From assembly GCA_004022145.1 (NCBI GenBank), contig RCNU01000013.1: DNA of 64,000 nucleotides. One strand, given 5' to 3'. Made by a program: the position numbers and the translations under genes. Position 1 is the first letter of the stretch. Each line of letters opens with the position of its first letter. Shown here piece by piece: positions 7,396-38,326 of the stretch. Under the pieces are notes generated by a model. That model saw only the letters and a program-made list of their open reading frames with translations. It made no database searches and had not been told where the DNA came from. This DNA is from Paecilomyces variotii (taxonomy: Eukaryota).

Positions 7396-9452
7396 ATGGC
7401 GCCGAACATCGCCTCCGCGAAGATCACCCTCTCATGTCCGCTGTTCGCAGCCGACTTCGACCCGCGAAATAATGGCTTCCTGCTAGTCGGTGGTGGCGGA
7501 GGAGAAGGTCGCAGTGGTGTTGGCAACAAGATCGCAAGTCTCGACCCTTTCTTTGTTTTGTTTTCTTCCTTTCTATGTCTCTCATCTTTCTCGATGACGC
7601 AAACAATTCAAGCATCGTTGGACTAACAGGCCATGGGACGAAATAGGCTCTCCTCGATACCTCCAAACGCAATGAGATCGCAGAAGTCGTGGACATTGAG
7701 CTTTCGCGCGACGAGGACTCGGTTACTTCTCTGGCGGCTGCGCATGCGGACGATGAGTCGGTCGTTGCGTTCGCGGGGATCAATAGCTCCCAGAAGGAGC
7801 AGCTAGAGGGGAATAATCAGCATTTACGATCGTTTCGGGTCGCGTATCCTCCCAGGAAGAGTACAGCAGCGGTGACGGGGCCGGAAGCAAATGCAGAAGG
7901 AGAGGTAGAGAAGGAGACGACGTCGGCCAGCACGGTCTCTAAGCAGCAGAAGACGGTGCCATTGTCGCGAGCGTCGTTGTTCAGGAATCCAACTACAAAG
8001 CCCGCCAAGGGCCAGAAGATCGATACGTATCAGCGGATCTTGAGGCTGTCGCCGTGGAGGGGACCAGATGCTCCGCGCATTGGGGCCGTCGCGACGGGAC
8101 TGGCACCCTCCGGGGAGATTGTGCTGTTTAATGTGACTACGACGCCGAGCGAGTCGGACATTCTAGCCCGGATACAACTGGGCGCTGGGGAGGAAGCAGA
8201 GGATCTTGATATCATTGATTTGGAGGACGGCAACTTCCGAGTTGCGTATACCGATGGCGTCCAGGTCTCCATATTCGATATCTCGTCCAAGAGCAAGTCG
8301 AATACTTCACCAGAGATACGGTCCGTCTATACCATGCCGAAAACCAAGACGAGGCCGAAATTGCGTGCCTTGCGCCTCCTCTCTCCGTGGGCTGTGCTGG
8401 TGCTTCAGAACGCCCCGAATCGATCTGGATGTGAGCTGGCGGTGTTGTCTATACCTCCTTCTGGGCCTGCCCAGGCGACTGTCATCCGCCGTCGGAAGCT
8501 GCCCAGGTCGATGAAGATCGGATTGGGGCTCGATGTATCCAATCTGGGAGAAAACGAGACAAAAGAACGCCAGTACGTTCTGGCTGTGTCCGGTAGCGAT
8601 CAGTCGATTGGGGTCTATACTCTCGATTACAGCCCGAAAAAGGGCTACAGTGCACCACGGCCATACACCACTCTACGGGATGTCCATCCATTCTCCATGA
8701 CCAAGCTCTGCTTCTCGACGTTCACCCCTCCTGCCCACCCAGTCACGGCGGCTGTCGGTCCTCAATATCTCAAGCTGGCCTCCGTCAGCATGGGCAATAC
8801 CGTCGTCGTCCACACATTCCCTCTGATTCCATGGCCACCTCCATCCCGCACTCCCCGCTATCTCCTCGTCAAGCCCGGCCACCCGGAGACTTGGGACACC
8901 ATCTTCAGCAGCTTCATCGCCCTCCTCGTCGTCGTCCTTGCCTGCTTCCTCCTGCAAGCCTTCACCGAAATCCGCGGCGGCACTCCTCCCTATCTGGGCG
9001 CTACAGACTGGCTCTCTCCCCGCGTGCGCGCATGGATCGCTCGTCCCTACATGTTCGATCACCACATCCCCGGCCGCGTAGTACCAGACATTACTCCCCC
9101 TTCCCCCATCCCCCAGATCAAAGTCCAAGACGAATCCCTTCGCAAGCTCCTCTCCGCACGCCGCGCCGCCGGAGCAATCGACCTCGCCTCCGACACGGCC
9201 CCCCAACCCCCCGCCATCTTCGTCCGGGACGAAGGAACCGCCATCTCCGCATATACCGCCCAGGGCGCCGAAGCGCTCATCCAGCAAGAAACAGCTCGGA
9301 AATGGGAAGACCTCCACGAAGAGGAACGTGAGAAATGGAAGAAACGCCTCATCGAAGCGGGCCACTGGGCCATTGAAGAAGGAGAGGCTGTTCTCAAGGG
9401 TGTGTTCTTCAGTCAGATCGGTGAGATAATCGGTGGTGCGATTGCGAGATGA
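7396..9452 (+). CDS. SEC12: Sec12-like Sar1 guanine-nucleotide exchange factor (beta-propeller plus transmembrane segment); GC-AG intron 7534-7646
   Basis: N-terminal GGGGGEGRSGVGNKI motif typical of Sec12/PREB; hydrophobic segment IFSSFIALLVVVLACFLLQAF; splice joins GNKI to ALLDTSKRNEIAEVVDIEL in frame. Confidence 0.75.
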
Positions 9453-13467: not shown

Positions 13468-15828
13468 TCTGAAATACGACCGCAGCAGCGATCTCTCTGG
13501 CTAGGATTCTTTCTGTCTGTCAGGGGAAACGCGGTAGTGGGAACGTTCTGCGATCGAAGGATGGAGTGGAGAGAAGAGAAGCGGACTGAAAGCAAGCAAC
13601 ACTGGGTGAGGATCAGCATCAGTACAAGAGCTCAATGAATCGACTACAACAATAGACAGGGTTATCCATCAATAGCAACCAGACAACACTGTCCTCTGTG
13701 AATGCAAGCTTCCCCAGGACAGGAAATGTAGCTAACTACAACACTTTCTGCCCCAGGGAGCGATATGCTGTCGAGGCTGCTTGCGCTTCGCTTACCTGGC
13801 TTATACCCGCAGGTTAGTTATCGGGGGGGCGCGTCCCTCGTATCGATCTGAGGATACTCCGAGCCCAGGGCGGGCACCGCTCGAGGTACCTCAAGGCAAC
13901 TCGAACGCCTTGAGACGTACAGGCTTGGGAAACGAACAGACCGCAGACACGCACGAGCAGCGTGGTGGGAGAGAGAGAAAACGAACGGGGTGAGCGAAGA
14001 CGAAAGGGAGAAAGACAAGAAAGCAAGTAAGGAAGACGAGAGAGAGGAGTGGCAGCGTGTCGGCAGTTTCACCTGCGCGGATCCCCAAGTTGGTTTGAGG
14101 GGGGGAAGCCGAATGGAGGCTCTGCAAACCACCAACCACCACCACCAGTGAATTATTACAGTGAATAGCTGATGGACAGCCGTTGGGTGGCGGGGTATCA
14201 TTATCTTGGCGTGGCTGAGAAAGAACAATGTTTGTTTCTACTGGACGGGGATTACTTATTATTATCATGCCTTTATTATCACTGAGACTGCCAGGTGAGT
14301 TGAACCCTTCAGAGACAGAAGAATGGCCATGCTGACTGCGAACGCTGGACACGGTGGCGGCTCTCTCAAGACACGAGTCTAGTCAGTCCCTCAGTCGCCG
14401 GACAGAGATTATTACAACTACAGAGCACAACTAAGTACATACATAATAATCATTATTATTATCTTAGTTCTCGGGCGGAATCCATCGCCCCATCAGTCGC
14501 CTAGTACGGAGTAGACTACACATGGCGTTAACTGGAGTATAGGATAGTTAGGTTTCCGTCTTATCAAGCGGCCCATTGTCCCCGAGTCCGAGTCCACCAA
14601 CAAGAAAAGGGATGCGATGAGACGGGTTCCTGAACCGTCCATTGTTCTCTGGTTCAGGGTGCTGTTCAGGGAGAGCCATGGTAGTTAGTTAGAGTGAGCG
14701 TGGATTCTTTGCTTACTCGTTAAGCTCTCGGGAACAACCCCCTTTTTTCCCTTTTGCTCAGTTCGCTCCCCCCTTCCGACACGGAACGCGTCGAAAAAAG
14801 CAGCGTCTATAGGCCACTTGCTACATGGCGAACGGGAAGCGCCATAGCGGCCGTTATAGCTGGTCTGATTCGTCCGCTGAATGGTATCTTCGAAACGTCT
14901 ATTCTGCTTAGGGTCCGCTCGTTTATCTAATTGGCGTTGCTAGTTAGCTAAGTAAGTGGTCGGAGAGCACAGAAGGCTAGGACGGTGTTAGTACTCTAAC
15001 TCGCTCCCTCTATCTATACTTGTCGGCGAAAATGCAGCTCAGTAAAAGCCAGACGGGAGTGGGACGGGAACATCGCCGCTTTACTCCCACACAAGCTACG
15101 TGACTACATCCTAGAATGCCATAATTCCTATATCTTGGTGATATGGCGAAGATTATAAAATACCCTGCCAATACTCATTTGCTCTGGATCTAGTTGCGCA
15201 TATATTATTGGGCACGGTGACAGCAATCAAGGACAACATTGCTAACTCATTATTGAGTATATGCTCTACAACGTGGCTAGCAATCTCACCACCGAGTGTT
15301 GGTGTCTGCAGTTATGGCATCCATTTTACCAACTCAATTAAGAATGTCATATTTTATTGTGTGGGAAGGGATCCCATACCTATTCCTGAACCTTGGAACC
15401 GGCAAGGCAACGTTCGAGGGGACGAATAACTAGAACGTTGACCATTGTCGACATCATCGCGTCTTGATAATTGCGGAACAGGCATAGGAACCCTTCAAAT
15501 TTTTTATTCATTGACATCACATAAATTACTGAACACCGAAATCAGTGAATATTTGATTTCATTGTGACTAGCCACCTCATCTCTAAACATGTAGAGTCGG
15601 GACAAGGCCTGGTTACAGGAATCCAATCGAATTGACGAGCCCATTGCGTCCTCAAACAAGATCTCAATCAACATCTATACGGTGCGATCTTCGATAGAAA
15701 CCATAGCTACAGTGATTGATCCGGGGAGTCTAAGCCTCTGACAGCCTCCCCTCCATTTATTAGACTGTCCAAAGTTCAATCGATTCAATCGCTATCACGA
15801 AGTCGACGCAGCAAAGGATCACGACGCG

Positions 15829-15984
15829 ATGGCCTCAACATCAGCTGCAAACAGCAGCACCGTCGATCTGACTGCAGCAGTTGCATTATTAACACAGCAA
15901 GTCACGACTCTCACACAGAAACTTGACGCGCACATCGAGAAGTGTCAACAGTCAGATAGATCCACGCCCTCCATTGCATTCTGA
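15829..15984 (+). CDS. 51-aa small ORF (MASTSAANSSTVDLTAAVALLTQQVTTLTQKLDAHIEKCQQSDRSTPSIAF); uORF, separate gene or first exon of the downstream gene
   Basis: Hand translation from ATG 15829 to TGA 15984; amphipathic heptad-like pattern; stop lies 22 nt before ATG 16007. Confidence 0.35.
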   Translation: MASTSAANSSTVDLTAAVALLTQQVTTLTQKLDAHIEKCQQSDRSTPSIAF

Positions 15985-16006
15985 CAGCTCCTACGAGCCA
16001 GAGAAC

Positions 16007-17383
16007 ATGGCCAATAATACATTCGCCCATCTTCCTCCGGAAGTATTGCTGATTATTCTTCGCAATGTACCGGATCTGCCATCGCTCTATAGATTCATAT
16101 GTGCATCAGCACAAGCTAATGCGGTATTTAAAATGGATGCTCCTCACATTTTGGATAAGGTCATCAAGCGCTCAATACCAGACTTTCAGCCTTTAGCTCG
16201 CATGATTTCTCTTTTAGGCTCGCTTGACATCCGGATTGGCTTCAATCCACGTCGATTATCAGAAACAGTCACTAAATACGGCGCTCTGCCTAAAGACCTA
16301 CTCACCAAGGCTGCTCCGTCCTTGTACTTCATAACTGGTACCTCGGGTCCGCGATACGTGTTGCTGACAGCTTATCGCATTGAGCATCTCCGACATATCT
16401 GTTTTACCACTCTTCTGCAAAATATTCATGAACTCATTTTTGTCAGTCCCGTGGACGGAAGAAATTTCAGTGACGTCCATACATTGAAACAGTTCCGGCC
16501 TGGAGTATTCTTCAAGCCCGTCGCCTGGTGGTCCCCATCATGGGTCGAAAGGTTTCGCATTGAGCGAGCACTCTGGCGATTATTTATGTACTGGAATATT
16601 GAAGCAATCCATTCTAAAGCTACTGTGCAAGATCCTGACCTCCGTCAATATAATAAAAGAATACGGCAGCTCAGCGGAAGCATAATTGCAGAAGAACGAG
16701 AAGAAGCCAAGATCATATCACACAGGGTTGAAGAGATGAATTGTATATCAGCAGCGGTTTATGAATTTCTCGGTTGCGAACCAGTGAAATTCTTTACGGC
16801 CATATCCAGCCAGGAACGGAAAGCATTGGTTACCAAAGCCCGGTCCAAGTTCGCACTCAGTTTCAAGGAGACTGCTGGTTGGAAGTTCGAAGACCCAAAG
16901 CCCTCAGAAGACACACCCTCTTATTACTGGGGCCAGGCAGCGAGCTGGACGAAGAAGCCTAACTCCGAGTATAGAGACTCCTATTGGTCGGTATGGGAGA
17001 GGGAGAGTCGTCTCCCTAGCTTTAGCATATTGAATCTTGAAAGACGCGATCTTTGGTTCTGTGATTATCTGGGCCTTTGCCTTTGGGATTACAAACGATT
17101 GTTGTATCTTGGACTAGATTATGGAAAATACTGGGATCCTTCCTTGGGGCGTCCAGCGCAGCCTGACGGCAAGTTCTTTTCTTCAGACAGATTGGATGGC
17201 AGATGGAGAGATATCTTCCTCCATGAGTTAGCCAGATTTCAAGGACATGGACGGCGGATGCTGTCATTGAACTGCAAAAGCCACATCGAACGTTGGGACA
17301 ACGAGTTAAGACGTAGGCCACTGTTGGATGGCTGGCGGCTGGAAGAGTCTTACTCTCATATGTACAATCGTGACATGAAATAA
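16007..17383 (+). CDS. Orphan protein with an N-terminal F-box-like motif
   Basis: Uninterrupted ~458-aa ORF; FAHLPPEVLLIILRNVPDLPSLYRFICAS matches the F-box pattern LPxE(I/V)LxxI...LxxLxxxS. Confidence 0.7.
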   Translation: MANNTFAHLPPEVLLIILRNVPDLPSLYRFICASAQANAVFKMDAPHILDKVIKRSIPDFQPLARMISLLGSLDIRIGFNPRRLSETVTKYGALPKDLLTKAAPSLYFITGTSGPRYVLLTAYRIEHLRHICFTTLLQNIHELIFVSPVDGRNFSDVHTLKQFRPGVFFKPVAWWSPSWVERFRIERALWRLFMYWNIEAIHSKATVQDPDLRQYNKRIRQLSGSIIAEEREEAKIISHRVEEMNCISAAVYEFLGCEPVKFFTAISSQERKALVTKARSKFALSFKETAGWKFEDPKPSEDTPSYYWGQAASWTKKPNSEYRDSYWSVWERESRLPSFSILNLERRDLWFCDYLGLCLWDYKRLLYLGLDYGKYWDPSLGRPAQPDGKFFSSDRLDGRWRDIFLHELARFQGHGRRMLSLNCKSHIERWDNELRRRPLLDGWRLEESYSHMYNRDMK

Positions 17384-17484
17384 GAGGAGGGAGAAATGAT
17401 CTTCATCGAGAAAAGCTCCATTGCTGCTCATTTAAAATGTATAAAGATAAAGATAAAGAAGAAGAAGAAGAAGATAAAGATAAA

Positions 17485-17580
17485 GAAGAAGAAGAAGAAG
17501 AAGAAGAAGAAGAAGAAGAAGAAGAAGAAGAAGAAGAAGAAGAAGAAGAAGAAGAAGAAGAAGAAGAAGAAGAAGAAGAA
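17485..17580 (+). repeat. (GAA)32 perfect trinucleotide tract, preceded by degenerate GATAAA/GAA units from ~17443
   Basis: Directly visible; 32 consecutive E codons in the 17437..17622 ORF. Confidence 0.95.
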
Positions 17581-17764
17581 GCGGGGGAAAAGGAAAGGAA
17601 AGTCGAAAAGAAATCTATGTGACTGTTTGTATAATGCCTTTTCACTTCACGTCGTACGATGATTGCTATCTTGCTTCAACACATATGATCTTGGAGGACA
17701 ACATTAGATTTCTAATTCAGTAGCAGGACTAATTGGGAGTATGTAGGTCTCACATTTGTTGCCC

Positions 17765-19203
17765 CTAGGCTAACATCGTCCACAGTAAGCCGAACTAGAC
17801 TGGCATGTATCTTTTCGCGTGGTTGAGCATGTACATACCTCTGCCACTTGCTTCTAGTCAAAAGGTCAGTATGAGACAAGTGAGACAGAAACCCCATAGA
17901 TAAATACATACCCCCGCTACCACCAGACATCAGAGCCAGCGCCGCAACGACGTCGTCCGCCGCCGCCTCCTCCGCCGCCTCCTCAGTCGCAGCCGCCGCG
18001 CCCTATGAAATCATTTCAAGTTAACCTTGTTGAGTTATACAGAATTCTTACCAAAGAACATACTGCATCCTTCTTTTCTAGTTCCTAAGCAATTATTAGC
18101 AGAAAGGCCATATACAAGTATAATTGTCATGTATGCTGACCTTTAGCTTCTTTTCCGCTTTCTATGTTTATATGGTAGCTTCGTTAGTAATTATCTAACG
18201 CACAGTCGAACGGAAGTGATAAATTCTACCAGGTATTTTTCATGAGCATCCTGCAGACAATTGTCAGTTGGTTTAACCTTTAAGAATACATTTAGGACCT
18301 CTTACATCTCTCTCCTCCATCATATGCTGTAATAATACAATATAATAAGCCTTGTCTAAGCTTATTTATAAAGATAATACTGACCTGGATCAGAGAGTCG
18401 AGGCCCTATCAGAGAAGAGCATATCAGTCTAATAATACTTGCGAAACAAGCTCAGTATGAAGTACCTTCCACTGCTGTTTGGAATCCTTGATTATATATT
18501 AGTCAGTGTTATAACCTAGTTAATGTGTACAAAGGATGCTTACATGGGCCACGTTCTGCCAGTACTACATTCCGAACCTATTAGCTGCCCAATTTAAAGA
18601 GATATCTTTGTGTAGAGCTTCATACTTTCTTCGTTCCCTGGAAGAACGATGTTTTGTTAATTAATTCCATGGCAAATGTAAGACCCTTGCTTACAAACTC
18701 AACCTCCGTCTGTCCCAACGACAATTTGCCAAAATTAGTATACTCTAATTGACATGGTAACAGCTTCAGTGTTTCATCACGTACAGTTCTCTACTAAACT
18801 GTCAGCAACGGAAGTACAAATCACCATATAGGTATTTTGAAGTAAAGAATCATATACCTCGTCATCTGCCCTGAAGGTGTACTTCTCTTTCTTGTGGCCT
18901 TGCTGGTGGCATAGTCTGCACTATATTGCGTGAATACTAATCCATTCGAACCCGAACTCTGGCTGCTTACGGTTCCGATACTATATAAAACAAGTATATT
19001 AGCAGAGTTCTTTTCAGTACGGCGAGGGACACTGACATGACGAGAGCTCCGACTCTGATGACAGCAATAAATTTGGACTATTAGCGTTTTCCATCGACCC
19101 TTCCTTTGTTTCTATCCACCTTGTTTTCTGGCTATTTCAAAGCAAGTAGACTTCATATTAGCAGGGCTCTACTGCTCATAGATCGCTAGACTAGCTTGCC
19201 CAT
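17765..19203 (-). CDS. Microexon gene encoding a ~130-aa predicted coiled-coil protein; 18 coding exons from ATG 19203, with further short exons upstream to ~19600-19900
   Basis: Regular minus-strand donor, branch-site and acceptor triplets every ~70-85 nt. Exons: 19206-19200, 19131-19120, 19054-19037, 18980-18971, 18915-18858, 18790-18785, 18709-18695, 18637-18626, seven 21-nt exons between 18564 and 18064, 18002-17912, 17853-17839, 17769-17765. They splice into one open frame. Confidence 0.75.
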
Positions 19204-20226
19204 TGTCTTGAAGTTCAAGCGAGACATATGTCAGCATCGGACTGCATTTTGTAAGTTACAGGACGATTTACCTACTCTCAGCTTTCTTTCTATTAATTAG
19301 TCAATTGGTCTTCAGTGCGCTTCCAGAACAGGTAGAATAAGCTTCCACTCTCAGATAGTCTGTTCTTCAATAAGTCCTATTATTAGCCAAGCTTGTCTCT
19401 CGAACCACGAAGATTGCAATGAAGATATTCTCACATAAGTTAGGACTATGAGATATTGAATTATCAGTCAGCGATACTAGCTCGTTGATAGCAACAAAGG
19501 TCACTGCTTACTTACAGAATTCAGTTAAGAACTTGAAATTAGGAAGTTCAATCAGGTTGGCCAGTTTCGATTGAGAATGATCCTCATAACTTGTCGGAGC
19601 CTGCCTACAGGCAGACTTCCTGTCGGGTTTCTCCCACGCCTTCTAGCTCTATCCACAGAGACATATAGGCCGAGCTAGTTGCTAGAGAATTCAAGCTCAG
19701 CGAGCTTCGCTCCAGATAGGTCACATGGTTATCGAATCTGCTACCCAGTCAAAGGTCAAAAAGAACTAGTGTAATATAAAAAAAGAAGCTGCTCTGGTTG
19801 TGACAGACCAGACATTTCAATAAAAATAAGGACACAAAAATCTAGTTCATCACGTACGTGTCTGCTGTTGCGGAGAGGGAAGGGGAAAGGTGAAGGAGAA
19901 GGAGAAACGTCGCGGCACCCACTACGGACTTATAAGTCCAACAGAACTACGTGCCTTCCCAGGCACAGCGTGACTCTTACACTCAATTCGACGCACAACG
20001 ATTGAAAGTGAATCATTTACAGAGTGATTACTTGGACTAGGGACATGCTTGAGAAACCTTTCATACTATACAATATTCATTGGGCCCTCTAGTCATCAAT
20101 TTGATGGGCAGCCAGATCATCACTTTACTAAATATGTCGTTTTTGATAATAAGAACCCAATATTAAGCTAGAAACTATGCTCGAGGCGCGAAAACATACG
20201 ATAGCTCCTCCGGTTGAGATGTTAAC

Positions 20227-20732
20227 TTGGTCATGCTTCTCCTTCAAGATGTATTTTCGTCCACTAGCGTCCAAAGAGTCCTGATTACTTATTCATGTAC
20301 GGAGCTGCTTACTTACTGGATCGCCCCCTGCGTCTTCGAATCAAACAATGTTGTCGAGGAAGTATTATGGGTTCGAGCTAGTGATCACGATATTACACCG
20401 GTAGACTGGGTTTAACTACAAATTGAAGCAGCCCAGGATTACGGCCATGGAGACTGGATCAGTGAACTATCAGGTTGTCCATCACGTCTTTCCACAGGTG
20501 AGCTTATTCAATCCTTAACAGTTTCGATTCCTGCCTTTCGAAATATTATTTGTTATTAAAGGAACATTCTAATCCTTCAAACAGATTAATCAGCCATATT
20601 ATCCAGAGATTGCCAATATTGTCAAATGGACGTGTATCGAGTTTGGAATCACATATAGAGCTCGATCTAGCTGCGCTGGGTGACCATCTTCGCTTGCTGA
20701 AAAGAATGGGAATGGTAAAAGCTGATTCCTAG
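20227..20732 (+). pseudogene. Decayed C-terminal part of a front-end (delta-5/delta-6-like) fatty-acid desaturase; intron 20498-20584
   Basis: Translated pieces FESNNVVEEV...DWV*LQIEAAQDYGHG / GSVNYQVVHHVFPQ|INQPYYPEIANIVKWTCIEFGITY / ALGDHLRLLKRMG; QxxHH third His-box; internal stop and two frameshifts. Confidence 0.75.
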
Positions 20733-21203
20733 TTGGGGCTTATCTTCTCTGATCATGCGGGTCTTCGATATGGTCGGACAAAGTTGATACGTATTTGACA
20801 ACTTTTGCAGCTCTGCTAAAAAGGTACCCCCTTAGGAGCGCAGGTCATTTTCATGTTAGACCACCCATACTAGGTGACAGCATTTCACAAAGTTGTATAT
20901 AACTGAAGAACATTTTCGACGATGGCTTGCATGTTATACAACACAGGATGTATGTCATAGATTCTATTGGCTCCATGAACCCGCAGCCCTTATACCTAGA
21001 CTTTTGGCAAAGAGTTGAAATGATTAATGGACGAGAGTGAAATGCCTAAGGCGTATCTGCGATATTGTCCTGGCCTGCTCGTTGGCCTTGATTTTTGGAT
21101 CCATTTCGTAGCACAGAATAAGACCTATGTACTAAATACTGTAAACATTATGATCTCTGAGCTAACACAGATAACTTCTTTCTCGATAAGACTGGCGGAC
21201 GCC

Positions 21204-22988
21204 CTAAATACATATAGTACTCCAAGTCATTGCACCGTAACCTTGTTCCGTCGAGCTCCAGCTGTACGCCCTAGGATCCCGATGCAGTGTAGTCATATAT
21301 TCAAAATGTCCACGAATATTTTCGGCGTCAGTGTATACTTTGGTTAATCTTCCACCATTCTCAAGTTCATGTTCTGCCTCTGCGCTAGTTTGGAAAACGG
21401 TTCCTTGCTCCTGGCAAGCCTTTTCAGTCTTTTCAAACGACCCATAGGGTGTAAACATCGAACTACCCTCGCTATCGACGAATCTCTCATTAATTAGGAT
21501 CATGTCCATCGGTCCACCTTCGTCTTCATGACGACGCACGTAAACCTCGAGAGAAGTGTCCCAATCGTGATACAAAAAATTCGCGAAGTAAGACCTGTAA
21601 AGGGTGAGTTTTGTTAATCGGTTGGGCAGATGTGCCCGGAGATAACCGGTGGTCAATTTTTGATGCTTGTACTGGTCGCCAAGGAGTAGATCTGGGACAA
21701 CAGCAAGGTGTTTCAGAGAAAGAAATGACCGTAATGGACAGCAGTAAACTGGTTTTTTCTCCACCTTTTCTTTTTCTTCTTGGTAACTATCGTAACTATC
21801 GTCATCGTCATCGTCGTAGTCGTCTTGTTCTTCTTCCTCTTCACCAAACGCACCTATCGGCGGCGGACACCAAAACTCGTTCACGTGCTCATGCAAATCG
21901 AGATGAAACAGCTGGTCTTTGAATCGATCTAAACTCGGCCACAGTTTCCGTTTCAAAGTTGTCACAGGGTCTGTCTCCAACGTCTTCATCACCGAGAGAC
22001 GTAACGTGTCGAGAGTCTCCGGGAGATCAAGAAGTGTCCAAAGATCATCATTTTCTTCGGATAATGGATGATCGAGCACAATCGTCAAATCTACCACCGG
22101 CGATATCTGTCGGGCATTTTTGTCAAATATCGCTGCAGCGCCCCTCGGGTTCAGATCGTAGAGACCCAATACCTTCAGTTGCGGCAGGTAGAACACAGGC
22201 CATAGATAGTCCAAATTAAGATCGTAGTATCTCTCCCACGGGTGACCAGTGTCATTGCAGTGATAGCCCTCACAGAAGAATTCCGCTCGTGATAATTTCT
22301 GAAAAGCTCGATACCTGGGACTGCGATTCGTTGTGCCCTCTTCTTTTTCAATGGCTTTTTTGAAGATCTCACTGAGATAATAGCACCAAGCCGGGACGTG
22401 AGCCTGAATGCTTTCCACATTCGGCAGCCGTGTGAGCAAGATAGCCATTAAAGGGGTCCGATCGGCATTCTTTTCAATTGCCCAGAACATGTTGAATTCA
22501 TCTTTCTCATTAAAACCAGCGTCACCAATGGCGGCCTTGAGCACGACTCTCTCGGCCTGCGAGAGAGTTAGCTGATTCTCCGGCTTCTCCACGTCTGACG
22601 GAATAACCCAGCAGCCCCATGCGCGAATTTCTAGATGCTTCACGCATGAAGCAAGTTCCGGGCGACTGAGTATCGTTCGGAGGTAGAGCCAGAGATTTCT
22701 TAAGGATTGCCTTTCTCCGCGATATGTGAACGTTTCGTACAACGTTGGTTGTACCAGATCCCTCCACTGCTTTCCAACCCGGCAAAGGTCCGAAAGTTGT
22801 CTTTCTTCAGAACGAGCGTCCGGCAGACGCCGGACTGCAGCATCTAGGTCCTTGCTGGGTATTTCAAGTGGCAATAATGCCGGGTCGAACCTCTTCTCGG
22901 GAGAACCATGATTGTCGCGATTTTGGCGTATGACCTCGTGCAGGATCATCCCGAATAGTTCAGGTGGTAAAGATGCTGGATCGGGCAT
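21204..22988 (-). CDS. F-box-like protein with degenerate LRR-like C-terminal repeats and an acidic insert
   Basis: 594-aa ORF; LPPELFGMILHEV...LSDLCRVGKQWRDLVQPTLY, ILSRPELASCVKHLEI, LPNVESI, LPQLKVLGL and LPNRLTKLTL are typical of expanded fungal F-box-like families. Confidence 0.75.
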   Translation of the reverse strand: MPDPASLPPELFGMILHEVIRQNRDNHGSPEKRFDPALLPLEIPSKDLDAAVRRLPDARSEERQLSDLCRVGKQWRDLVQPTLYETFTYRGERQSLRNLWLYLRTILSRPELASCVKHLEIRAWGCWVIPSDVEKPENQLTLSQAERVVLKAAIGDAGFNEKDEFNMFWAIEKNADRTPLMAILLTRLPNVESIQAHVPAWCYYLSEIFKKAIEKEEGTTNRSPRYRAFQKLSRAEFFCEGYHCNDTGHPWERYYDLNLDYLWPVFYLPQLKVLGLYDLNPRGAAAIFDKNARQISPVVDLTIVLDHPLSEENDDLWTLLDLPETLDTLRLSVMKTLETDPVTTLKRKLWPSLDRFKDQLFHLDLHEHVNEFWCPPPIGAFGEEEEEQDDYDDDDDDSYDSYQEEKEKVEKKPVYCCPLRSFLSLKHLAVVPDLLLGDQYKHQKLTTGYLRAHLPNRLTKLTLYRSYFANFLYHDWDTSLEVYVRRHEDEGGPMDMILINERFVDSEGSSMFTPYGSFEKTEKACQEQGTVFQTSAEAEHELENGGRLTKVYTDAENIRGHFEYMTTLHRDPRAYSWSSTEQGYGAMTWSTICI

Positions 22989-23857
22989 TTTGAAATGTCT
23001 CGACCGTGTTCCTGTTCTACTTCAATAGACTGTTACTTAACTGCGGACAGAGGAATAAGTGGGCGGCTGCGATTGAGTTGTCCGCACATGGAGAATTGAT
23101 TCGAGCCAACAAAAATAGACTGGTATAAACATACAAAAGGAGAAAGATGAAAAAGAATTTGAATACCTAGTGGTAGGAATTCGCTGGTGGTCATCCAGCC
23201 AGGCACTACTTACTTCCCTGAAGGTTTCACGTTGAAGAAGACGGTTTGGCGCTCGTGACAGTGATGTGACACGGGCTAATTTAATGTCAGCAGCTAAAAT
23301 CAACGGTCCTAAAAAGGTACCAACGCACTCGTATTCGGAGGAATAGCCATTATAGCTCAATTCTTAGTTGGCACTTAGTAACCAATCTATTAAGTATTAT
23401 TTCACAGGCGAGTCGGCTATCCGTCCGAACTTTCTAGCGTTTATTGCCTTTTCCCTAACCCAAAGTTCGCTGTATATCATACAAATTGCTTGGCGAAAAA
23501 GGAGTATCATCACATTCAGTCGCTGGAGAGACTAATAGATACCTCAGTGATAGTTGTCGCCCTCAAGTCCACGCTGTTTGAGCTCCCCAGTTAGTGGTCT
23601 ATATAGTCGGGACACAGAGCTTCCCATATTACCCATGGCCAAGTCCGTACTCCGTAACTAAATAGTAGTAGAAACGCATATGCCGTAATTATAATATACC
23701 GAATCCCGATATTAGTCGCTAGCCTAGGATTTATATGCTCGCAATAAGAAACATGGTATATTCACTGAAACGCTCGTCCGGAGCAGGAAGACAGGTCATA
23801 AGCTTCTGTTAGACATGCGCTGCAGAGTCTACGCCGCTGAGATAGGGCGAGTCGGCC

Positions 23858-31000: not shown

Positions 31001-31656
31001 AGATTAAGCGACGTGAAGAGGAAGTCAGAAAAGCACGAGAAGCTGAGGAGGAAAGGAAGAGGAAAATCGCAGAAGAAAGACAACGGATGGTTGAAGAAGC
31101 CGCGCGACTCGCTCAACAACGCGCTGAGGAAGAACGCGCGAGGGAAGAAGCCGAACTGACGACGGATGAGGAGACCGGCACCAAGACCAAGAGGACGAAG
31201 AGGAAGCCTTCCAAGCGCAAGAAGAAGGCCGAAGATGCTGAGAGCGATGGAGACTCATCACGCCGTGGCAGAAGCACAGAACCTCCAAGTGATGGCGAGT
31301 CTGCACCTAAGAAGCGCAGACGACTGGAGCGGAGGTCTGCTGCCAAGGAGAATACCAAGTACAAGAGCAGCGAAATCGTCGTGGATTCCGACAGCGAAGA
31401 AGGTGGTGTGGACAACGCTCGTACGGCTGAATCTGATCACGATGAGCAGATGGGCGGTGCTGGTGATGAGGATGAGGGAGTTGTTCGAAGCCGTCGGAAG
31501 ATCACACGCCGGATCGAAGACGATGACGACGAGGAAGAAGAGGAAGCTGAAGCTGCTGCACCTGCAGATGATGACGATGACCTATTTGGTGAAAAGTCCG
31601 GCGACGAGGGGGCCAAGAATGAGGATGCGGAAATGAAGGATGACGATGAGGAATAA
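28021..31656 (+). CDS. CTR9: Paf1-complex TPR subunit Ctr9; intron 28876-28926
   Basis: Tandem TPRs, DPRIGIG, KALQLDPKNAYAAQGIAI, charged C-terminal tail with KYKSSEIVVDSD. Confidence 0.92.
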
Positions 31657-34600
31657 GCGTAATCTTCTCTTTCTCTCGGTGTCGTTTACCATCATCAATT
31701 ATTTCTTGTCATTCTCAACTATCCCAGCTTGTCCAGGCAGCATTTTAAGGAAAGCCACAACAAATAGCTTCGCATTTGAATACCCTGACTTTTTGAAGGC
31801 GTCGGTGGTTGTATAGGTTGGGGGTTTATTTCCAGTGTATTCTAACAGAAAATTACTATATTATTTTGTCCAGCGGTTGTCTAAATGCATCAATTTGAAA
31901 GACTATGATTGTCGTCTCAATATTATATAGGTTACTATTTTCTCATTTACAACCTATAACTATTCATCCCTGGTTTATGCCATGGGAGTGAACTTCAATT
32001 CCCCGTCTATTTTCCTTTTTTTCCGCTTGTGTCACGACACAGAAGCAATCTTCATCCATATATCAAACGGCCCCAAAAACCCAGCTCATCTCAGCAGGAA
32101 AAAAAAAGCAAAAAAGCCCCTGAGAAGCGAAGGAAAAAAAAAAGATAAGATTCCAACAAACACAAACCAGCAAACATACGCAGGTGGCACATCCCTGATA
32201 AGTTTGCTTGTCCACACACCCCTAGACTAACTAACTTATCCGACTCACCGTACGGACTACTCGTAGATAGTACTGTACATACTACATGTACATACTACGC
32301 CGCAAACTACGCCGCAAAACTACAGCCTGCAGCGGTATTTAGGGCTTGTTGATCCCGATCTGCATGTAACATCTGTTCCAGGGACCCGAAAGGAGTCGCT
32401 CATTCCTTCTTTGTTGTCGTCAGCCTTATTTTCAACCGGCTCTAACTAGTTAGTTATCTAGAGTGGTTGATGAGTTAATATCCATTTGTTCTTTCGATAG
32501 TAAGAATAAAACGAGATAGGATAGGATGGGTGTGTTTTCCAGATTAGGGACTTACATATATTTTACTGTAGTGTGCTACAATGCGATGTGATGCAGCTGG
32601 GTTTATCTTCGATAATATGTAGTGTAGAGTAAGTGGACGAATGGGAGGGAAAGGAATACGTCCCCTGCAGTTGCAGGTGTAGTATGCAGCATTTAGTTAC
32701 ATATACCTGTCCTCGGGACTATAATATTTAATATTACATTGTAACTATTCCGGAACTAACCGCATGAAATAACTACGGATAATATACCTAGGATAACACG
32801 AGATAAGATCTGTAGATAACGGACGAGAGTATAATTTATTTAGTGATAAATATTAAATAGTCCACGCACGGTAGGAATTCAGTCTGAAGATTCGGATGAA
32901 TTATTAGTAACTATCAAATATCTATCCCAGATTTCAGAATTATATCTAACAACTAGTTAAGAGTAATTGTTTATTATGCGGAGAATAATATTTACCCCAT
33001 ATCTACTGGTAGAAAATCCAGAAAATTCGGACAAGGGTACTTATGGAACAACGGTAAGCAGAAAGAAAAAAAAAAGAAAGAAATCCTCCGAATCCGGGGA
33101 TTGGAGTTAGAGGGTGGTGATCTGGTCTCCATTCCCTGTTTAACTAATATTACCCCGTACAGCCTCACGCATGCGAGCGCGGGTATGGGGCCGGATAAAA
33201 TAAAATAAAATAAAATAAGTAAAATCAATCATTGGGTTTTGTGTGATTAATTTTACTGATTTGGGTATGTATCGTCCACTTACTATTGGATCAGATCATG
33301 CATGGTTGTTTTGCTTGCTAGACGATCATATCATTTTAGCATAAAGTAAGTAATCATTAGAGCAGGGAGTACGGAGTATAAGTTACTTTACTTACAAGGA
33401 TCTGCTTAATTTTCCGATATGATTCCCCAGACGACCAGTTAGCACAGTGCCACAGAAAGATTCCGGAAGTTTTTGACCAGGGTGAAGTTGGGGGGAGGGT
33501 GGTTCGACTCTTTCGAGTCTCGACAGCTCTAGAATGCCAGGGGGAGTTGATGTTCTATTGACATCTGGAACTGCGAGTGTATCAGGTAGATAGTTTTTTT
33601 GCTGGCCGTTATCGTCTTATCGATTATCTAGTTAGTTAGCTACCAATTCAATAAACCCGAGATTCGAGGATGGATCCAAATTGGTCTATCTACGGTCTAG
33701 TTAACTATAGTATAAGTTATGTTCCTTTTTCTGGAGAAGGGATTACTATCATCATCATCATCATCAAGTGGTCTTTTAATCTATCGCTCCACCTGTGCTA
33801 ACTACTCCTGTTACTAGTTAAAAAGATTCTCAAATGATTTTCCATCACGCCCAGCTAGCCACGGAGTAGGTTTAGGTTTTACTCTACTAGTTCACCCTCG
33901 TTCTAGTCGAGTTTAGGTCCTGTTCATCATTTTTCAGCTTTGCTTCTCGGCTTTTGGCGGATTTCATCGTCGCAGAAACTCCACTGTGGGCGGTTTCGTC
34001 TGCCCATTATTGCCCCCCCTCTTTTTCCACACGGTCGCTTCGTCTTTCTCTCCATTATCCACAATCCGTTAGACTGGATATTGATTCTATGGAATTTGGG
34101 AGGGGGGGGGTCATATGAGTCAGTTGTTGATATCGGATTGTTTGCACTCCAGAATACTTATTGATCGACCGGTGGATAAAGATCTACGCGGGAATAGAAA
34201 AGATCTGGCGGAGGGATAGATGAAAGAAAGCGAATTGCTCAGAAAGGAAGGTCTTTTCTTTCTTGTGGATTATTATTATGTATTATTCTCGTGGAGGCTT
34301 AGAGATTTGCCCGACTTTGACGGACGGGGTAAGTGTCGGATCAGATAAGCTGGACGAGCTGGACGAGTTGCTATGAAGACGGGATGAAAGGTAATTATCT
34401 ACCGTTGACGGAGACGGTCTGGTTGTGAAGAGAAGAGTACTAGTTAGTCAGTTCGTTAATGCTGACCAGCTTCTTCTACCTAGAATATTATTGTTATTTA
34501 AGCTATCTAGTAGTATCTACAGTAGTACAGAGAGCATCACGATGTGGGCTTTGACCTCGTAACCATGTCTTCATCCCTTGCTTCATGCCGTGGCACGATA

Positions 34601-37600
34601 CCGATCTCTATAGAATACTGTCACTGCAATAGGCTCATTGGCTGCGGATATCTCAATTGATCTCGATGCGAGTCTGCACGGCCTTCGGTGCTTTGACTCA
34701 TGAAAGCTCTCTCTCCTAACAGCTGTTAGATCGTCAAGAACACCAGCAACGCAACGTAATAGTTACGGGCCGGGCATAGATCGGGTCCCGAGGTGTCGTG
34801 GGATGTCAATTGCGCCGACTCGGGCCTTTTTTTGTCAACGGTTCCTGGTACCTGTCGATGATCCCACGGCAAGTCGATCTCCAACCGGAGATCCGTCTTG
34901 ATGGCTCTCAGATGGCGTTCATGGAGATTCTTATGTATATTATTAAACACCCACCAAGTGTCTTTCTGATCAGTATCTAACTATCTACTTCGATAGAATT
35001 TCTATAATAATACAAGCGAAACGGACCTAGAGCACCGCACACCTGGTTTCTGCCACATGCCGTCGGTTTCAAGTTCGAACCTGACAGTTCCGCGTGGTTT
35101 TTCAACGGTCGTCCTCGTCAGCTTGGGGCCAAAGTCCCCAGCCGGAATGTAACCGTTGGACAGATTAGACAGACGGTGTAAAGTTACTTTTGAAACGTCT
35201 CCGCGGTCCTTCTTGCCGGTCCTCAGAGCCGGAGCCCGCTAGGTGAGGGGAAAAAGAAAAGACTAGCTAGTTTGGATGCATAAAAAGTCAATGAAGCCAG
35301 GCGGATTATTGTCGACTGATTGGAGAATTGGTCGATGTAGACGGGATTTTCTGTCCAATTGTGGATGAGAAAAATAGTAAAAAAAAGAAAACGCGTCCCA
35401 AGCAATGGAAAAGATAAGAAAGAAAAAACCACTGCAGAGGAGCGTCAATATGAGCGATTATTGTTATTTCTTACGGTTTCACTGCGGCGTCCCCAGCCTA
35501 TATTCTTGCGTGTTCCCTTCCTTGGCGCGCTCTGTATTGGACAATACTTAATGGAACCATCCTGACCAGACCAGACTAACAATAAAAGCGTGCATTGTGC
35601 ATCGTCAAGACCGTTTCCGACCACGTTGACGGCTCCGAGCGACCACGAGGATGAAAGCTGCTGCCGTGAACCTTACCTTTTCGCCGGCCGAGCTGGAGTT
35701 CCTCGAGACTCGAGAGAGTGATCTGCGCCCAGCGAATTGCTCCACCGGTTGAAGGAATAGTTCATCCCAGGAACCATGGAACGCGGCAGTTCCCCGTGGA
35801 CACACACACACACACACACATATTATGGTATTATTATTGATCTTGCCATTATTCATTATCCTCGGGGACTCGTGAAGCGATATACATACATACATAGTTA
35901 CGGGACAATGCGCAAATAATTAATCATCATCGCGACTTACGCCGTCTGCGATCGCGAACCCACTGAGCAGCGCAACTAACCATCCTCAAGCCACATTCTC
36001 CAGTCGTGGGAGAACAGAGGCTTAAGAGAGCTTTCCACCCCCACTTGATTATTGGATCGTATCCGATCATCTGCGATATCGTCTACAGAATAGGTAACGG
36101 GTGGTATCGTTGGAACTTGGTAGAGAGAGAGAGAGATGCGGACATGGGATCTACCAGCCTTGCAGAACCCGTCGGGGTTGTATAGAGTATGGTATACTAG
36201 TATTGCCATGGGTCTTCTCACAATACTGGAACCGTCACACCGCCGGGGACCTTCTGCAGTTTTCTTTCACCGAAAGATTCTGCAGAAAAAAAAAAGAAAA
36301 GAAAAGAAAAAAGGCCGGGATGATATCAGGCACGGCTCGATGTTATCCTCTCTGTCAAGCGGATCATCCCGAGGCTGGGATGATGGGATATACCTGGCGG
36401 CAGGAGTGACAACCCAGCATCTTGCGCTACGCTACTCGACTCTATATTACTCTAGACGCGAAGTAACAACCATCTAGTTACTGCTGCTGTACCGCGTTGC
36501 GCCTAGGACAGCGTCAGCCGGTGTACAGCAGCGGATTTATTGATCCCTCCCCTTGTCGCACGGTGAGGAAGCCTGAACAGCTTCTCTCAGTAAGTTATTG
36601 TTATCGAGTAGCCTCAAAAACAAATAAGATCATAATAATATCTGGACGGGGGAGCCTGGATCCTGACGACGCATGGAGAACCCAGCGTCACAGCGGGTTG
36701 TCCATCGGGTTGGACTTGGGATGCTACACCAAAGTAGGGAAACCGACCGCGATCCGCTAGAGTAGGATGATAGCGAACACGGACTCATCCCGCATACTGG
36801 TACGTCTGCTGGAGGATTTATTGAGGATTAGTTATTGAGTCCGCAATCCAAACGGCCTTGCGCAGCTAGAGTGCGTTCGTCCCCCCACTGATGCTTCTCG
36901 TTCAGCCACCATCGACCCGGTCTCGCACCAACAGGGTTGACCCAGGGAGCTGTGAGGTGTTCTGATACGCCCAGCCGTGGTTCCTCACTGTTCGGTGTTC
37001 ATCATCTGCGGACAGGAACTGCCCCTGAGCACGGGTGGACAAGAGTTGTTATTATTATTATTCTTCCGCTTAGGCAGACCGGCTAGTCGGGTCATCCCAG
37101 AGAGAGAGTAGTGAGTCTATGATGGGGTTACTCATGAGAAGATTGAATAGAAGAAGAAGAAGATAATAACAAGACCATACCTCGTATATCTTTTGTTCTA
37201 AACACATGTCATGGACTGGATCTGACAGGCTGGCCGGCCTGAAACATACGGGGGGGAGAGGGAATAATTGCTAGTTAGCTAGACTTTGGGGCTAAACAAC
37301 GCGCGTGTGGACAAACCAGCCAGAACGATCGCGGTTCTAACTTCTCGCTCTAGTTAAGCTAATTCGCTTCTGAACCTCCAGAAAAGCGAACTTGTCCCCT
37401 GGCTACGCCCCACTGACGCCGATTCTTTCTCAAAGAGAAATCCACAGCGTTGGATTCACAACTATTTGCACGTTTGACGCCGTTTTCGCTGGCGTCTGGC
37501 CCTTTCCCCGGAACCTCCTGCTGCTGGTCGAACAATCACTCGACGCGATCAGCATTCAGGCACGGCAAACTATCTGCCGCGCGCTGTCTGTGCGGTGTTT

Positions 37601-38326
37601 GCTATTTGGGCTGAAGGTTATGGTTTAAAAAAAAAAAAGAAATAATAAAAAAAAATTGGATATGAGAAAAAAAAAAGGCGATCACATATTATTATTATTA
37701 TTATTATTATTTGACAGGTGTGCTGCCGCTTTGCAATTATTGTCATCTTCCATCTTCCGTCTTTCTTTCTTTCTTTCTTCCTTTCCATTTCCTTACTTCT
37801 TATAGGAAGAAGTGGAGGTCTGTCAATCAATCCAATTGCCCTGCGGGGTTCCTATCGTTTTATTATTATTGCTGCTTTTTTAGTACCCGGGCAAGACCTT
37901 CGTCTGATCAGTTCTGAATTGTCTCTCCTACCCACACCCTCGTCGTAGTGGGATCCGCTCCCTTTTCTCAAAATAGCTGCTTGTCAACGGTTATCCAGCC
38001 CTGTGCCCTAACAAGTAGCATCGATCATTCTCTCCTTACTTACCATTATCACTACTACTACTCAAGCCTCAGACGCAAGCGTGTTTCTCCTTTTCCTCCC
38101 TCTGTTCTGGACCTCCCAATACACTACTAGCCTGGCGTGCGGAGTAGCAATCTCCTCGTCAGCATCATTATTATTCTCTCTTTTGCCTAGCTGCTATACT
38201 ACCTACTAGTCAATTCGGCGGACAAGTGTTTGGACTTAGGCCATGGTCTAAGGTCCTGGTCAGAAACCCCGGTCACTCGCATATCTACTATCCGGCAACA
38301 ATATCCCCGATCCTACAAGCAGTCGG

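Follow-up and report, generated by a model that had tools for sequence, protein, structure and literature searches.

The filamentous fungus Paecilomyces variotii carries a stretch of about 2 kb that looks empty of open reading frames (ORFs) and yet is tiled with intron-like segments, which raises the question of whether a protein-coding gene built almost entirely of very short exons lies there. This stretch occupies the minus strand between positions 17765 and 19900 of a 64,000-nucleotide (nt) piece of contig RCNU01000013.1 (assembly GCA_004022145.1), hereafter called the window. An earlier reading of the bare sequence (the original prediction) had proposed an intact, unannotated gene with about 21 short introns and a product of 130 amino acids (aa), from a possibly undescribed family, and had compared it with the micro-exon genes (MEGs) of Schistosoma. 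Here, we followed up this proposal with scripted splicing, codon statistics, assembled RNA contigs, database searches and structure prediction. Our results indicate that the locus is probably a genuine, expressed, lineage-restricted, protein-coding micro-exon gene of P. variotii or a very close relative, with about 20 short spliceosomal introns and a core in which single exons appear to encode single heptads.

After reading positions 17400-20300 on the minus strand, we spliced the locus by coordinate with a script. Removal of 17 minus-strand introns of 55-75 nt from ATG 19203 onwards gave an open frame of 130 codons ending at a TAG, and its translation matched the protein of the original prediction letter for letter. 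Together with three introns in the leader, the model holds 20 introns, or 21 if a weak candidate near 19347-19291 is counted, in agreement with the predicted number. The coding part is laid out as follows:

19201..19203, minus strand: proposed start codon in the context ACAATGG; it is the open frame's first ATG and, of all parts of the model, the least secure
18858..19200, minus strand: N-terminal coding part, to which the first exon contributes 4 coding nt, followed by exons of 12, 18, 10 and 58 nt; introns i1-i4 separate them
18064..18790, minus strand: symmetric micro-exon array of ten phase-0 exons with introns i6-i14; i5 lies directly upstream and i15 directly downstream
17912..18002, minus strand: 91-nt exon encoding an Ala/Glu/Asp-rich tail, present in the splice model and in the GenBank model
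17765..17911, minus strand: gene end in the splice model, with i16, a 15-nt exon, i17 and the stop codon TAG at 17767-17765
19199-19132, 19119-19055, 19036-18981 and 18970-18916, minus strand: coding introns i1-i4
18857-18791, 18784-18710 and 18694-18638, minus strand: coding introns i5-i7
18625-18565, 18543-18487, 18465-18406 and 18384-18327, minus strand: coding introns i8-i11
18305-18251, 18229-18162, 18140-18085 and 18063-18003, minus strand: coding introns i12-i15
17911-17854 and 17838-17770, minus strand: coding introns i16 and i17

All 20 model introns, coding and leader, have GT or GC at one end and AG at the other. Among the 17 coding introns, 16 begin with GT and one with GC (GCAAGC), all 17 end in AG, and a CTRAY-type branch motif is found in 12, at 8-31 nt before the 3′ end. 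These ends, the branch site, a length within about 50-100 nt and the removal in RNA described below are the features of U2-type spliceosomal introns of Pezizomycotina. An in-frame stop is present upstream of ATG 19203. The internal coding exons measure 12, 18, 10, 58, 6, 15, 12, seven times 21, 91 and 15 nt; 14 of the 16 are no longer than 21 nt, and 13 of the 16 are multiples of three, for which simple arithmetic with a binomial at p = 1/3 gives about 1e-4. Ten successive exons (6, 15, 12 and the seven of 21 nt) are flanked by phase-0 introns and all have lengths that are multiples of three. Two of the introns, i6 (75 nt, 18710-18784) and i7 (57 nt, 18638-18694), themselves have lengths divisible by three, sit in phase 0 and contain no stop, and their retention would add 25 and 19 residues, respectively, with the frame unbroken. 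Ascomycete genes usually have a handful of introns. Here, about 20 introns interrupt a coding sequence of about 390 nt; at roughly 43 per kb of coding sequence, the gene exceeds even intron-rich eukaryotes in intron density several times over.

To see how far such an array exceeds chance, we applied a frame-blind rule (a consensus-like donor, the first branch motif, the first AG after it and a length of 48-95 nt) to the whole window. It yielded 79 non-overlapping intron-like segments on one strand and 88 on the other, about 1.3 per kb. On the minus strand, 14 segments fell in 17751-19750, against a plus-strand maximum of 6 per 2 kb anywhere in the 64 kb, and the eight top 2-kb minus-strand windows (9-14 segments) all overlapped the gene locus. 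The rule made 20 calls in the region. Eleven of the 20 model introns were matched exactly at both ends, including both flanks of two 21-nt exons, of a 12-nt exon and of a 15-nt exon; the other nine calls shared one end with a model intron, or neither. Since a rule blind to frame recovers 11 of the 20 introns exactly, the boundaries were not tuned to preserve the frame. The dense tiling with short introns that had first drawn attention to the locus thus exceeds chance, as judged from this density and from the RNA joints. Elsewhere in the window, a stretch of 6.6 kb (31656-38252) also holds no stop-to-stop ORF of at least 150 aa on either strand, and it is not among the top intron-density windows listed.

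We then analysed whether the spliced frame is used like that of a gene. For training, we drew codon tables from 8,385 codons in 14 long window ORFs, and frame-0 models were compared with shifted ones. The frame-0 margin of the spliced frame was 35.6 nats, compared with a median of 27.4 for 56 ORF chunks of equal size, all 56 of which were correctly phased. In a second run the margin was 39.5, a value reached by none of 5000 shuffles, even with the best of three frames, and by none of 5000 pseudo-genes cut from the gene's own introns, whose maximum was 10.3. By part, the margin was 24.4 for the symmetric array (0 of 5000 shuffles reach it), 9.9 for the C-terminal part (P 0.0002) and 5.2 for the first 35 codons (P 0.032), where the signal is weak. 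The GC content at third codon positions (GC3) was 0.63 in the spliced frame and 0.61 in the training ORFs, with an intron GC of 0.37 (range 0.24-0.46), and T made up 15% of the exons and 33% of the introns. Codon usage thus supports the proposal that the open frame is coding.

The search for relatives in protein collections, made with a 96-aa stop-free genomic ORF containing the 91-nt exon in place of the spliced protein, revealed that the core of the gene is already in GenBank. The matching protein, here called P0002, is the 113-aa "hypothetical protein DTO164E3_7803" of Paecilomyces variotii (KAJ9193547.1, KAJ9351604.1). When the window is spliced at i8-i16 from ATG 18670 and i17 is read through, the product equals P0002 at 113 of 113 residues. 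P0002 therefore includes all seven 21-nt exons and the 12-, 91- and 15-nt exons, with the junctions of the original prediction; it starts inside i7, at an ATG in the context GCCATGG, has another C-terminal end and omits the first ~42 residues of the 130-aa model. The peptide of the 58-nt exon occurred in no database protein of 84-2000 aa, and the 130-aa form was not in a collection of 5.8 billion proteins. Accordingly, the description of the gene as unannotated, or invisible, does not hold for the core, where i8-i16 are identical, and stands for the N-terminal ~42 residues and the last junction. What we observe directly is the set of splice sites, the open frame with its codon bias, the match to the GenBank model and the intron removals in RNA given below.

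The only other match, P0001, is an unnamed 114-aa ORF on a 583-nt metagenome contig of a relative, where it covers the 3′ end of the locus in unspliced form, with 92% identity and a two-codon in-frame length difference. A residue change at an exon end, read from the protein letters of P0001, could place a stop at the spliced junction, so that the last seven residues of the 130-aa protein may not be conserved. In the window, 96 codons are open on the minus strand at 17715-18002, from the 91-nt exon on through the last two introns.

Evidence at the RNA level came from four metatranscriptome runs (X2-X5) of food fermentations, which were found via the flanking genes and whose contigs were aligned to 17200-20400. 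The alignment placed pieces of 28 nt, and chains of exons of 21 nt or less could not be placed. X5 had no cover over 17735-18590, and that interval counts as evidence in neither direction. The X5 contigs differ from the window by 4-8% in sequence and carry minus-strand GT..AG joints, some of them in the leader, which is composed as follows:

19516..19900, minus strand: first leader exon with an unmapped 5′ end, holding the 125-nt repeat 19592-19716 and several upstream ATGs
19592..19716, strand not applicable: dispersed repeat or conserved RNA element of ~125 nt, inside the leader and outside the coding model
19446..19515, minus strand: leader intron a, 70 nt, GTAAGT..TAG, removed in an X5 contig (joint 19359>19516)
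19435..19445, minus strand: leader micro-exon of 11 nt, whose letters sit between the halves of joint 19359>19516
19360..19434, minus strand: leader intron b, 75 nt, GTGAGA..CAG, removed by the same joint (70+11+75 = 156 nt skipped)
19207..19275, minus strand: leader intron c, 69 nt, GTAGGT..AAG, removed by joint 19206>19276 and ending 3 nt before the proposed ATG

One X5 contig was continuous over 19516-19699 and then entered the spliced leader. Joint 19359>19516 skips 156 nt with the exact 11 letters of the micro-exon 19445-19435 in between, which equals two introns and an 11-nt exon, and joint 19206>19276 shows CT..AC ends on the plus strand (side 46). The fourth leader-intron candidate, near 19347-19291, was not removed in the RNA contigs. 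In the coding part, joint 18961>19037 skips 75 nt with 19 letters in between, corresponding to removal of i3, the small exon and the start of a retained i4. At the compound joint 18788>18925, where the genome has 136 bases, the contig has at most 68, and loss of the 67-nt i5 would account for the difference within one base; the missing base, taken together with the extra base of the 10-nt exon in this relative, could reflect a compensated pair of length changes, or an N-terminal part free of coding constraint. In total, nine of the 20 introns could be judged: removal was seen for four (19515-19446, 19434-19360, 19275-19207 and 19036-18981) and is likely for i5, and the contigs were continuous through i1 (GC-AG), i2, both ends of i4, and i6. 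The removal of i3 and i5 while i4 and i6 stay in hints at an ordered removal of introns. No exon-skipping joint was present among the five joints listed, and the reading frame would allow skipping.

Further downstream, the X5 record stops matching the window 8 nt past the i7 donor (18694), and 93 further letters place nowhere in the stretch. The simplest reading is that these letters would come from successive exons none longer than 21 nt, because a retained intron would have been placed, as pieces of 28 nt were; the record would then pass at this point into the spliced micro-exon array. The runs X2-X4 cover the array and leader as unspliced sequence only, at a depth of about 15-37, and X2 has the same depth over the intergenic flank. 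This cover is probably DNA carry-over, or else pre-mRNA, and speaks neither for nor against splicing. Moreover, a contig of a near-identical strain has 15 differences, of which the 4 listed fall in 17992-18710; among these, 18144 T>C, the one in an exon, is a synonymous change (CTA>CTG) and the three others lie in i15. Taken together, the X5 joints fall at model sites, in line with the proposed spliced minus-strand transcript, and splicing of the full array in vivo and its translation would follow from the same model.

Given that the seven 21-nt exons each encode seven residues, we wrote them as rows of a seven-column table. Hydrophobic residues occupy column 2 in six of the seven rows and column 6 in five of the seven, and charged residues occupy columns 1, 3, 4 and 5. 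Hydrophobic periodicity was significant at 3.6 residues (P 0.0008) and at 3.5 residues (P 0.013), the periodicity of the coiled-coil, heptad-repeat class, and was found over the seven array exons within the modelled helix. Read from the letters, exon boundaries coincide with the putative heptad boundaries, so that one 21-nt exon equals one heptad. AlphaFold2 run on the single sequence of P0002 gave one helix over residues 6-88, with a predicted local distance difference test score (pLDDT) of 91-96 over residues 11-60, across the array-encoded part, and 73.8 on average. When residues 12-70 were modelled in two copies, they formed an antiparallel pair with a score of 0.59, against 0.00 for the best control; the mark for this score was reached by 17 of 29 eukaryotic proteins whose solved structure pairs two copies of one chain, by 1 of the 7 of those without an older solved relative, and by 0 of 30 whose solved structure is a single chain. 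In the pair model, contacts agreed by at least 97% between runs, the partner had a pLDDT of 89, and contacts fell on the same columns of every exon. The long helix is thus predicted to form an antiparallel homodimeric coiled coil, with an acidic Ala/Glu tail after it. Both candidate N-termini are hydrophilic by inspection (no signal-peptide predictor was run), with no hydrophobic signal-like core.

We also searched for relatives and for traces of the gene's origin. A word-indexed search of 5.8 billion proteins, over lengths of 62-198 aa, yielded P0001 and P0002 itself and nothing else, and a HMMER search of 1.84 billion representatives of all lengths returned P0002 itself and two spurious long proteins (1421 and 1519 aa), repeat proteins that matched via repeated short stretches. 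No Pfam family scored above threshold for the P0002-type protein; the candidate DUF4110 (PF13422) reached 15.6 bits against a gathering cut-off of 27, with an E of 0.016 beside neighbouring noise matches at 0.09-0.27, and was rejected as noise. The best score in the ESM Atlas was 0.76, under the level of a lead, and nothing better than E 0.5 was found among the PDB sequences. Two scans of metagenome contigs, one with P0002 and the other, for synteny, with the 486-aa neighbour, gave 598 and 36 pattern matches, none of which passed tblastn. In the literature searched, outside of which lay supplementary gene lists, we found no fungal gene made of a micro-exon array and no paper on the structure of DTO164E3_7803. 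The core is already known as a GenBank hypothetical protein, with no paper found that describes its architecture, and the searches made brought up no relative, Pfam family or paper, in line with the proposal of a possibly undescribed family. Gene finders usually miss such genes, so the absence of homologues is weak evidence.

Regarding origin, Tandem Repeats Finder (TRF) reported no tandem period near 78 nt, and a MAFFT alignment of nine exon-plus-intron units had 43% mean column identity and no conserved column. There was a small excess similarity between units: the intron-intron mean local score was 13.7 vs 12.5 ± 0.4 (P 0.005), and exons shared 7.2 vs 5.7 of 21 positions (P 0.001). It is explicable by shared branch and pyrimidine signals together with codon-position composition, and duplication is neither shown nor excluded by it. 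The array may have arisen by an old duplication of exon-plus-intron units or by intron gain at heptad spacing.

Several observations weigh against the main reading of a spliced, coding gene. The evidence for splicing derives entirely from a single run within a single study, and from a relative that is 4-8% divergent; X2-X4 lend no support to splicing of the array, and no placeable RNA contig shows 21-nt exons joined. Four of the nine judged introns are retained, and retention of i1 leads to a stop after 5 codons. In the spliced contig of the relative, read by eye, the 10-nt exon (18962-18980 area) is 11 nt long and has 3 substitutions, so the N-terminal frame is not obviously conserved. The leader is long, with up to 5 upstream ATGs. 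A stop-free reading has a chance probability in 20,000 shuffles of 0.006 for the whole RNA and 0.011 within exons, which is only modestly unlikely because the exons are T-poor. As no homologue was found, purifying selection has no comparison sequence; the power at a period of 7.0 residues was not significant (P 0.70); and the GenBank model, if predicted ab initio as it may be, would not attest splicing independently. One alternative that would accommodate part of this is that the gene is the same and the protein starts at ATG 18670, as in GenBank, with the upstream exons 1-7 forming a long, multi-intron, inefficiently spliced leader and a product of ~113 aa or similar made of array and tail. 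The strong context of this ATG, the in-frame and stop-free i7 around it, the retention of i1, i2, i4 and i6, the length change in the 10-nt exon, the absence of the N-terminal peptide from database proteins and the weak codon signal of the first 35 codons compared with that of the array all fit such a start. However, the departure of the X5 contig from the genome within 8 nt of the i7 donor suggests that ATG 18670 is spliced out, i7 resembles the other introns (good donor GTAAGC, a pyrimidine tract before CAG, 0.37 GC), and a gene finder blind to micro-exons would choose precisely such an internal ATG. We consider a start at ATG 18670 unlikely, yet a serious candidate, and the N-terminal third is less secure than the array and tail, with the start codon as the least certain element.

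A heavily spliced non-coding transcript, or one targeted by nonsense-mediated decay (NMD), would make the frame incidental and let the locus act by being transcribed or spliced, for instance as a regulatory RNA that depends on splicing. The retained introns, the upstream ORFs of the long leader, the T-poor exons that ease stop-free frames (P about 0.01), the GC-AG ends of the first coding intron and the lack of any homologue or domain found would agree with this. It is very unlikely, though, since the codon margin lies above the median of window ORFs and was never matched by shuffles or intron pseudo-genes, GC3 is as in real genes, the hydrophobic pattern is in register with the exons, and ten successive phase-0 exons in multiples of three are unexplained without a reading frame. 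It is barely credible that splice-like motifs merely cluster by chance in an intergenic stretch here and that the original prediction and a gene finder both read too much into them. Some donors are indeed weak (GTATAT, GTACTT, GTAGAA, GTGGAT, GCAAGC), five of the 17 coding introns lack a CTRAY motif, and nine frame-blind calls in the region fall outside the model introns; but GT..AG joints in RNA contigs with micro-exon letters between them contradict chance, as do the codon statistics, an intron-like density more than double the value found anywhere else in the 64 kb and an exact length of 21 nt recurring seven times. Overall, the proposal of a transcribed and spliced gene with an extraordinary architecture and a coding look was upheld, whereas "unannotated", "intact" and a MEG likeness beyond symmetry were not; in particular, an intact gene from ATG 19203 is put in doubt by the retained introns, the 11-nt version of the 10-nt exon and the weak N-terminal codon signal.

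For the micro-exon gene that we favour, we propose that each intron is recognised on its own (intron definition) via its own donor, branch site and acceptor, and a tolerance of exons of 6-21 nt would be explained in this way. Neighbouring introns may need ordered removal, which fits i3 and i5 being out with i4 and i6 in. The product would be small and helical, would carry an acidic tail and would probably pair with itself. Because every junction in the array falls between two codons and also between two heptads, skipping an array exon or keeping i6 or i7 would alter the length of the helix with the frame kept; where the skipped exon is one of the seven of 21 nt, the heptad register would be kept as well. 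The cell may make use of such skipping and retention. As to function, we would guess at a small coiled-coil protein with a structural or adaptor role, made in amounts that depend strongly on splicing efficiency.

The gene is a natural test case for minimal splice-site spacing and for the order in which neighbouring introns are removed. The exon-heptad match offers a clean object for asking whether exon boundaries track protein repeats by duplication or by targeted intron gain. It also points to a blind spot in annotation: ORF-based and ab initio methods see nothing, or part, of such a gene, the lack of homologues may reflect that, and more such fungal genes may exist. A bolder proposal, which we hold to be quite unlikely, is that this is the first fungal micro-exon gene, and one in which an exon equals a heptad, the finest known match between exons and protein, serving as a splicing-set ruler or spacer of graded coiled coils and as a read-out of spliceosome capacity, or else having arisen from duplicated units or heptad-spaced intron gain. 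If so, coiled-coil length would be graded by exon skipping or by keeping the in-frame i6 and i7, and protein output would track spliceosome capacity, for instance when this heat-resistant mould is under heat stress. The significance is limited by the single-lineage distribution and by the indirect nature of the array read-through in RNA.

The surroundings of the gene look ordinary. The neighbours include a PAK-type kinase, an NAD kinase and a tetratricopeptide repeat (TPR) protein, all with Pfam families; the 594-aa upstream neighbour has a sub-threshold leucine-rich repeat (LRR) match only, and no Pfam family was assigned to the ORF 7647-9449 or to the 486-aa neighbour on the downstream side. 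A long (AAG)n / (CTT)n microsatellite lies at 17432-17613 between two convergent genes, and an X2 contig that is 7-11% divergent spans the microsatellite interval with 114 letters vs 247 in the window. In the leader, many RNA contigs of all four runs stack over 19592-19716, to a summed depth of 800-1200. The contigs pass into unlike sequence at both borders in the four runs, as expected for a dispersed repeat, similar to a miniature inverted-repeat transposable element (MITE) or a short interspersed nuclear element (SINE), or for a widely conserved small RNA. The ends of this element pair, with a fold of -46.7 kcal/mol on the minus strand, and no second copy was found within the 64-kb window. 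Rfam showed no family near threshold in 15000-23000 (E up to 1) or in 19540-19770 (E up to 10), and the same scan found no small nucleolar RNAs (snoRNAs) hosted by the introns, which are too short for them.

Among known systems, collagen-type genes have arrays of 54-bp exon units that match the Gly-X-Y repeat. The fungal gene is similar in that its exon lengths are locked to a repeat in the protein structure: multiples of the triplet in collagen, one heptad in the present gene. Unlike the collagen exons, which are larger and clearly duplicated, the fungal array has no tandem-repeat signal left. The MEGs of Schistosoma, with which the locus had originally been compared, have tandem symmetric exons of 6-36 bp in multiples of three that are thought to permit protein variation by alternative splicing, according to one account (PMC3961193), and in another account their exons measure 3-81 bp, their introns reach 5 kb and their products are secreted (bioRxiv 10.1101/2023.06.21.545858). 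The likeness holds for exon symmetry: in both, the coding region consists mostly of tandem symmetric exons in multiples of three, with array exons of 6-21 nt here, and exons could be skipped with no frameshift, as follows in the fungal gene from the lengths and phase of the array exons. It fails for introns (55-75 nt here, against up to 5 kb in the second MEG account), for secretion (in that account MEG products are secreted, whereas by inspection the fungal N-termini have no signal-like hydrophobic stretch) and for sequence, as no similarity was found in protein searches. Moreover, MEGs form multi-copy flatworm families, whereas this gene is single copy in the 64-kb window, and in a fungus. 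The resemblance is thus one of layout only and not of membership, and it would be convergent; it would show a micro-exon architecture arising independently of the parasite-specific schistosome MEGs.

In fungi, long-read annotation of Coprinopsis cinerea gave 1,165 gene models with an internal exon of 15 nt or less (PMC12230235), and a paper on the Xlr2 switch of Trichoderma describes functional microexons as previously undescribed in filamentous fungi (PMC11121469). Both cases resemble the present one in that very short internal exons are correctly spliced in fungi and often missed by annotation; they concern single microexons in ordinary genes, whereas here the gene itself consists of microexons.

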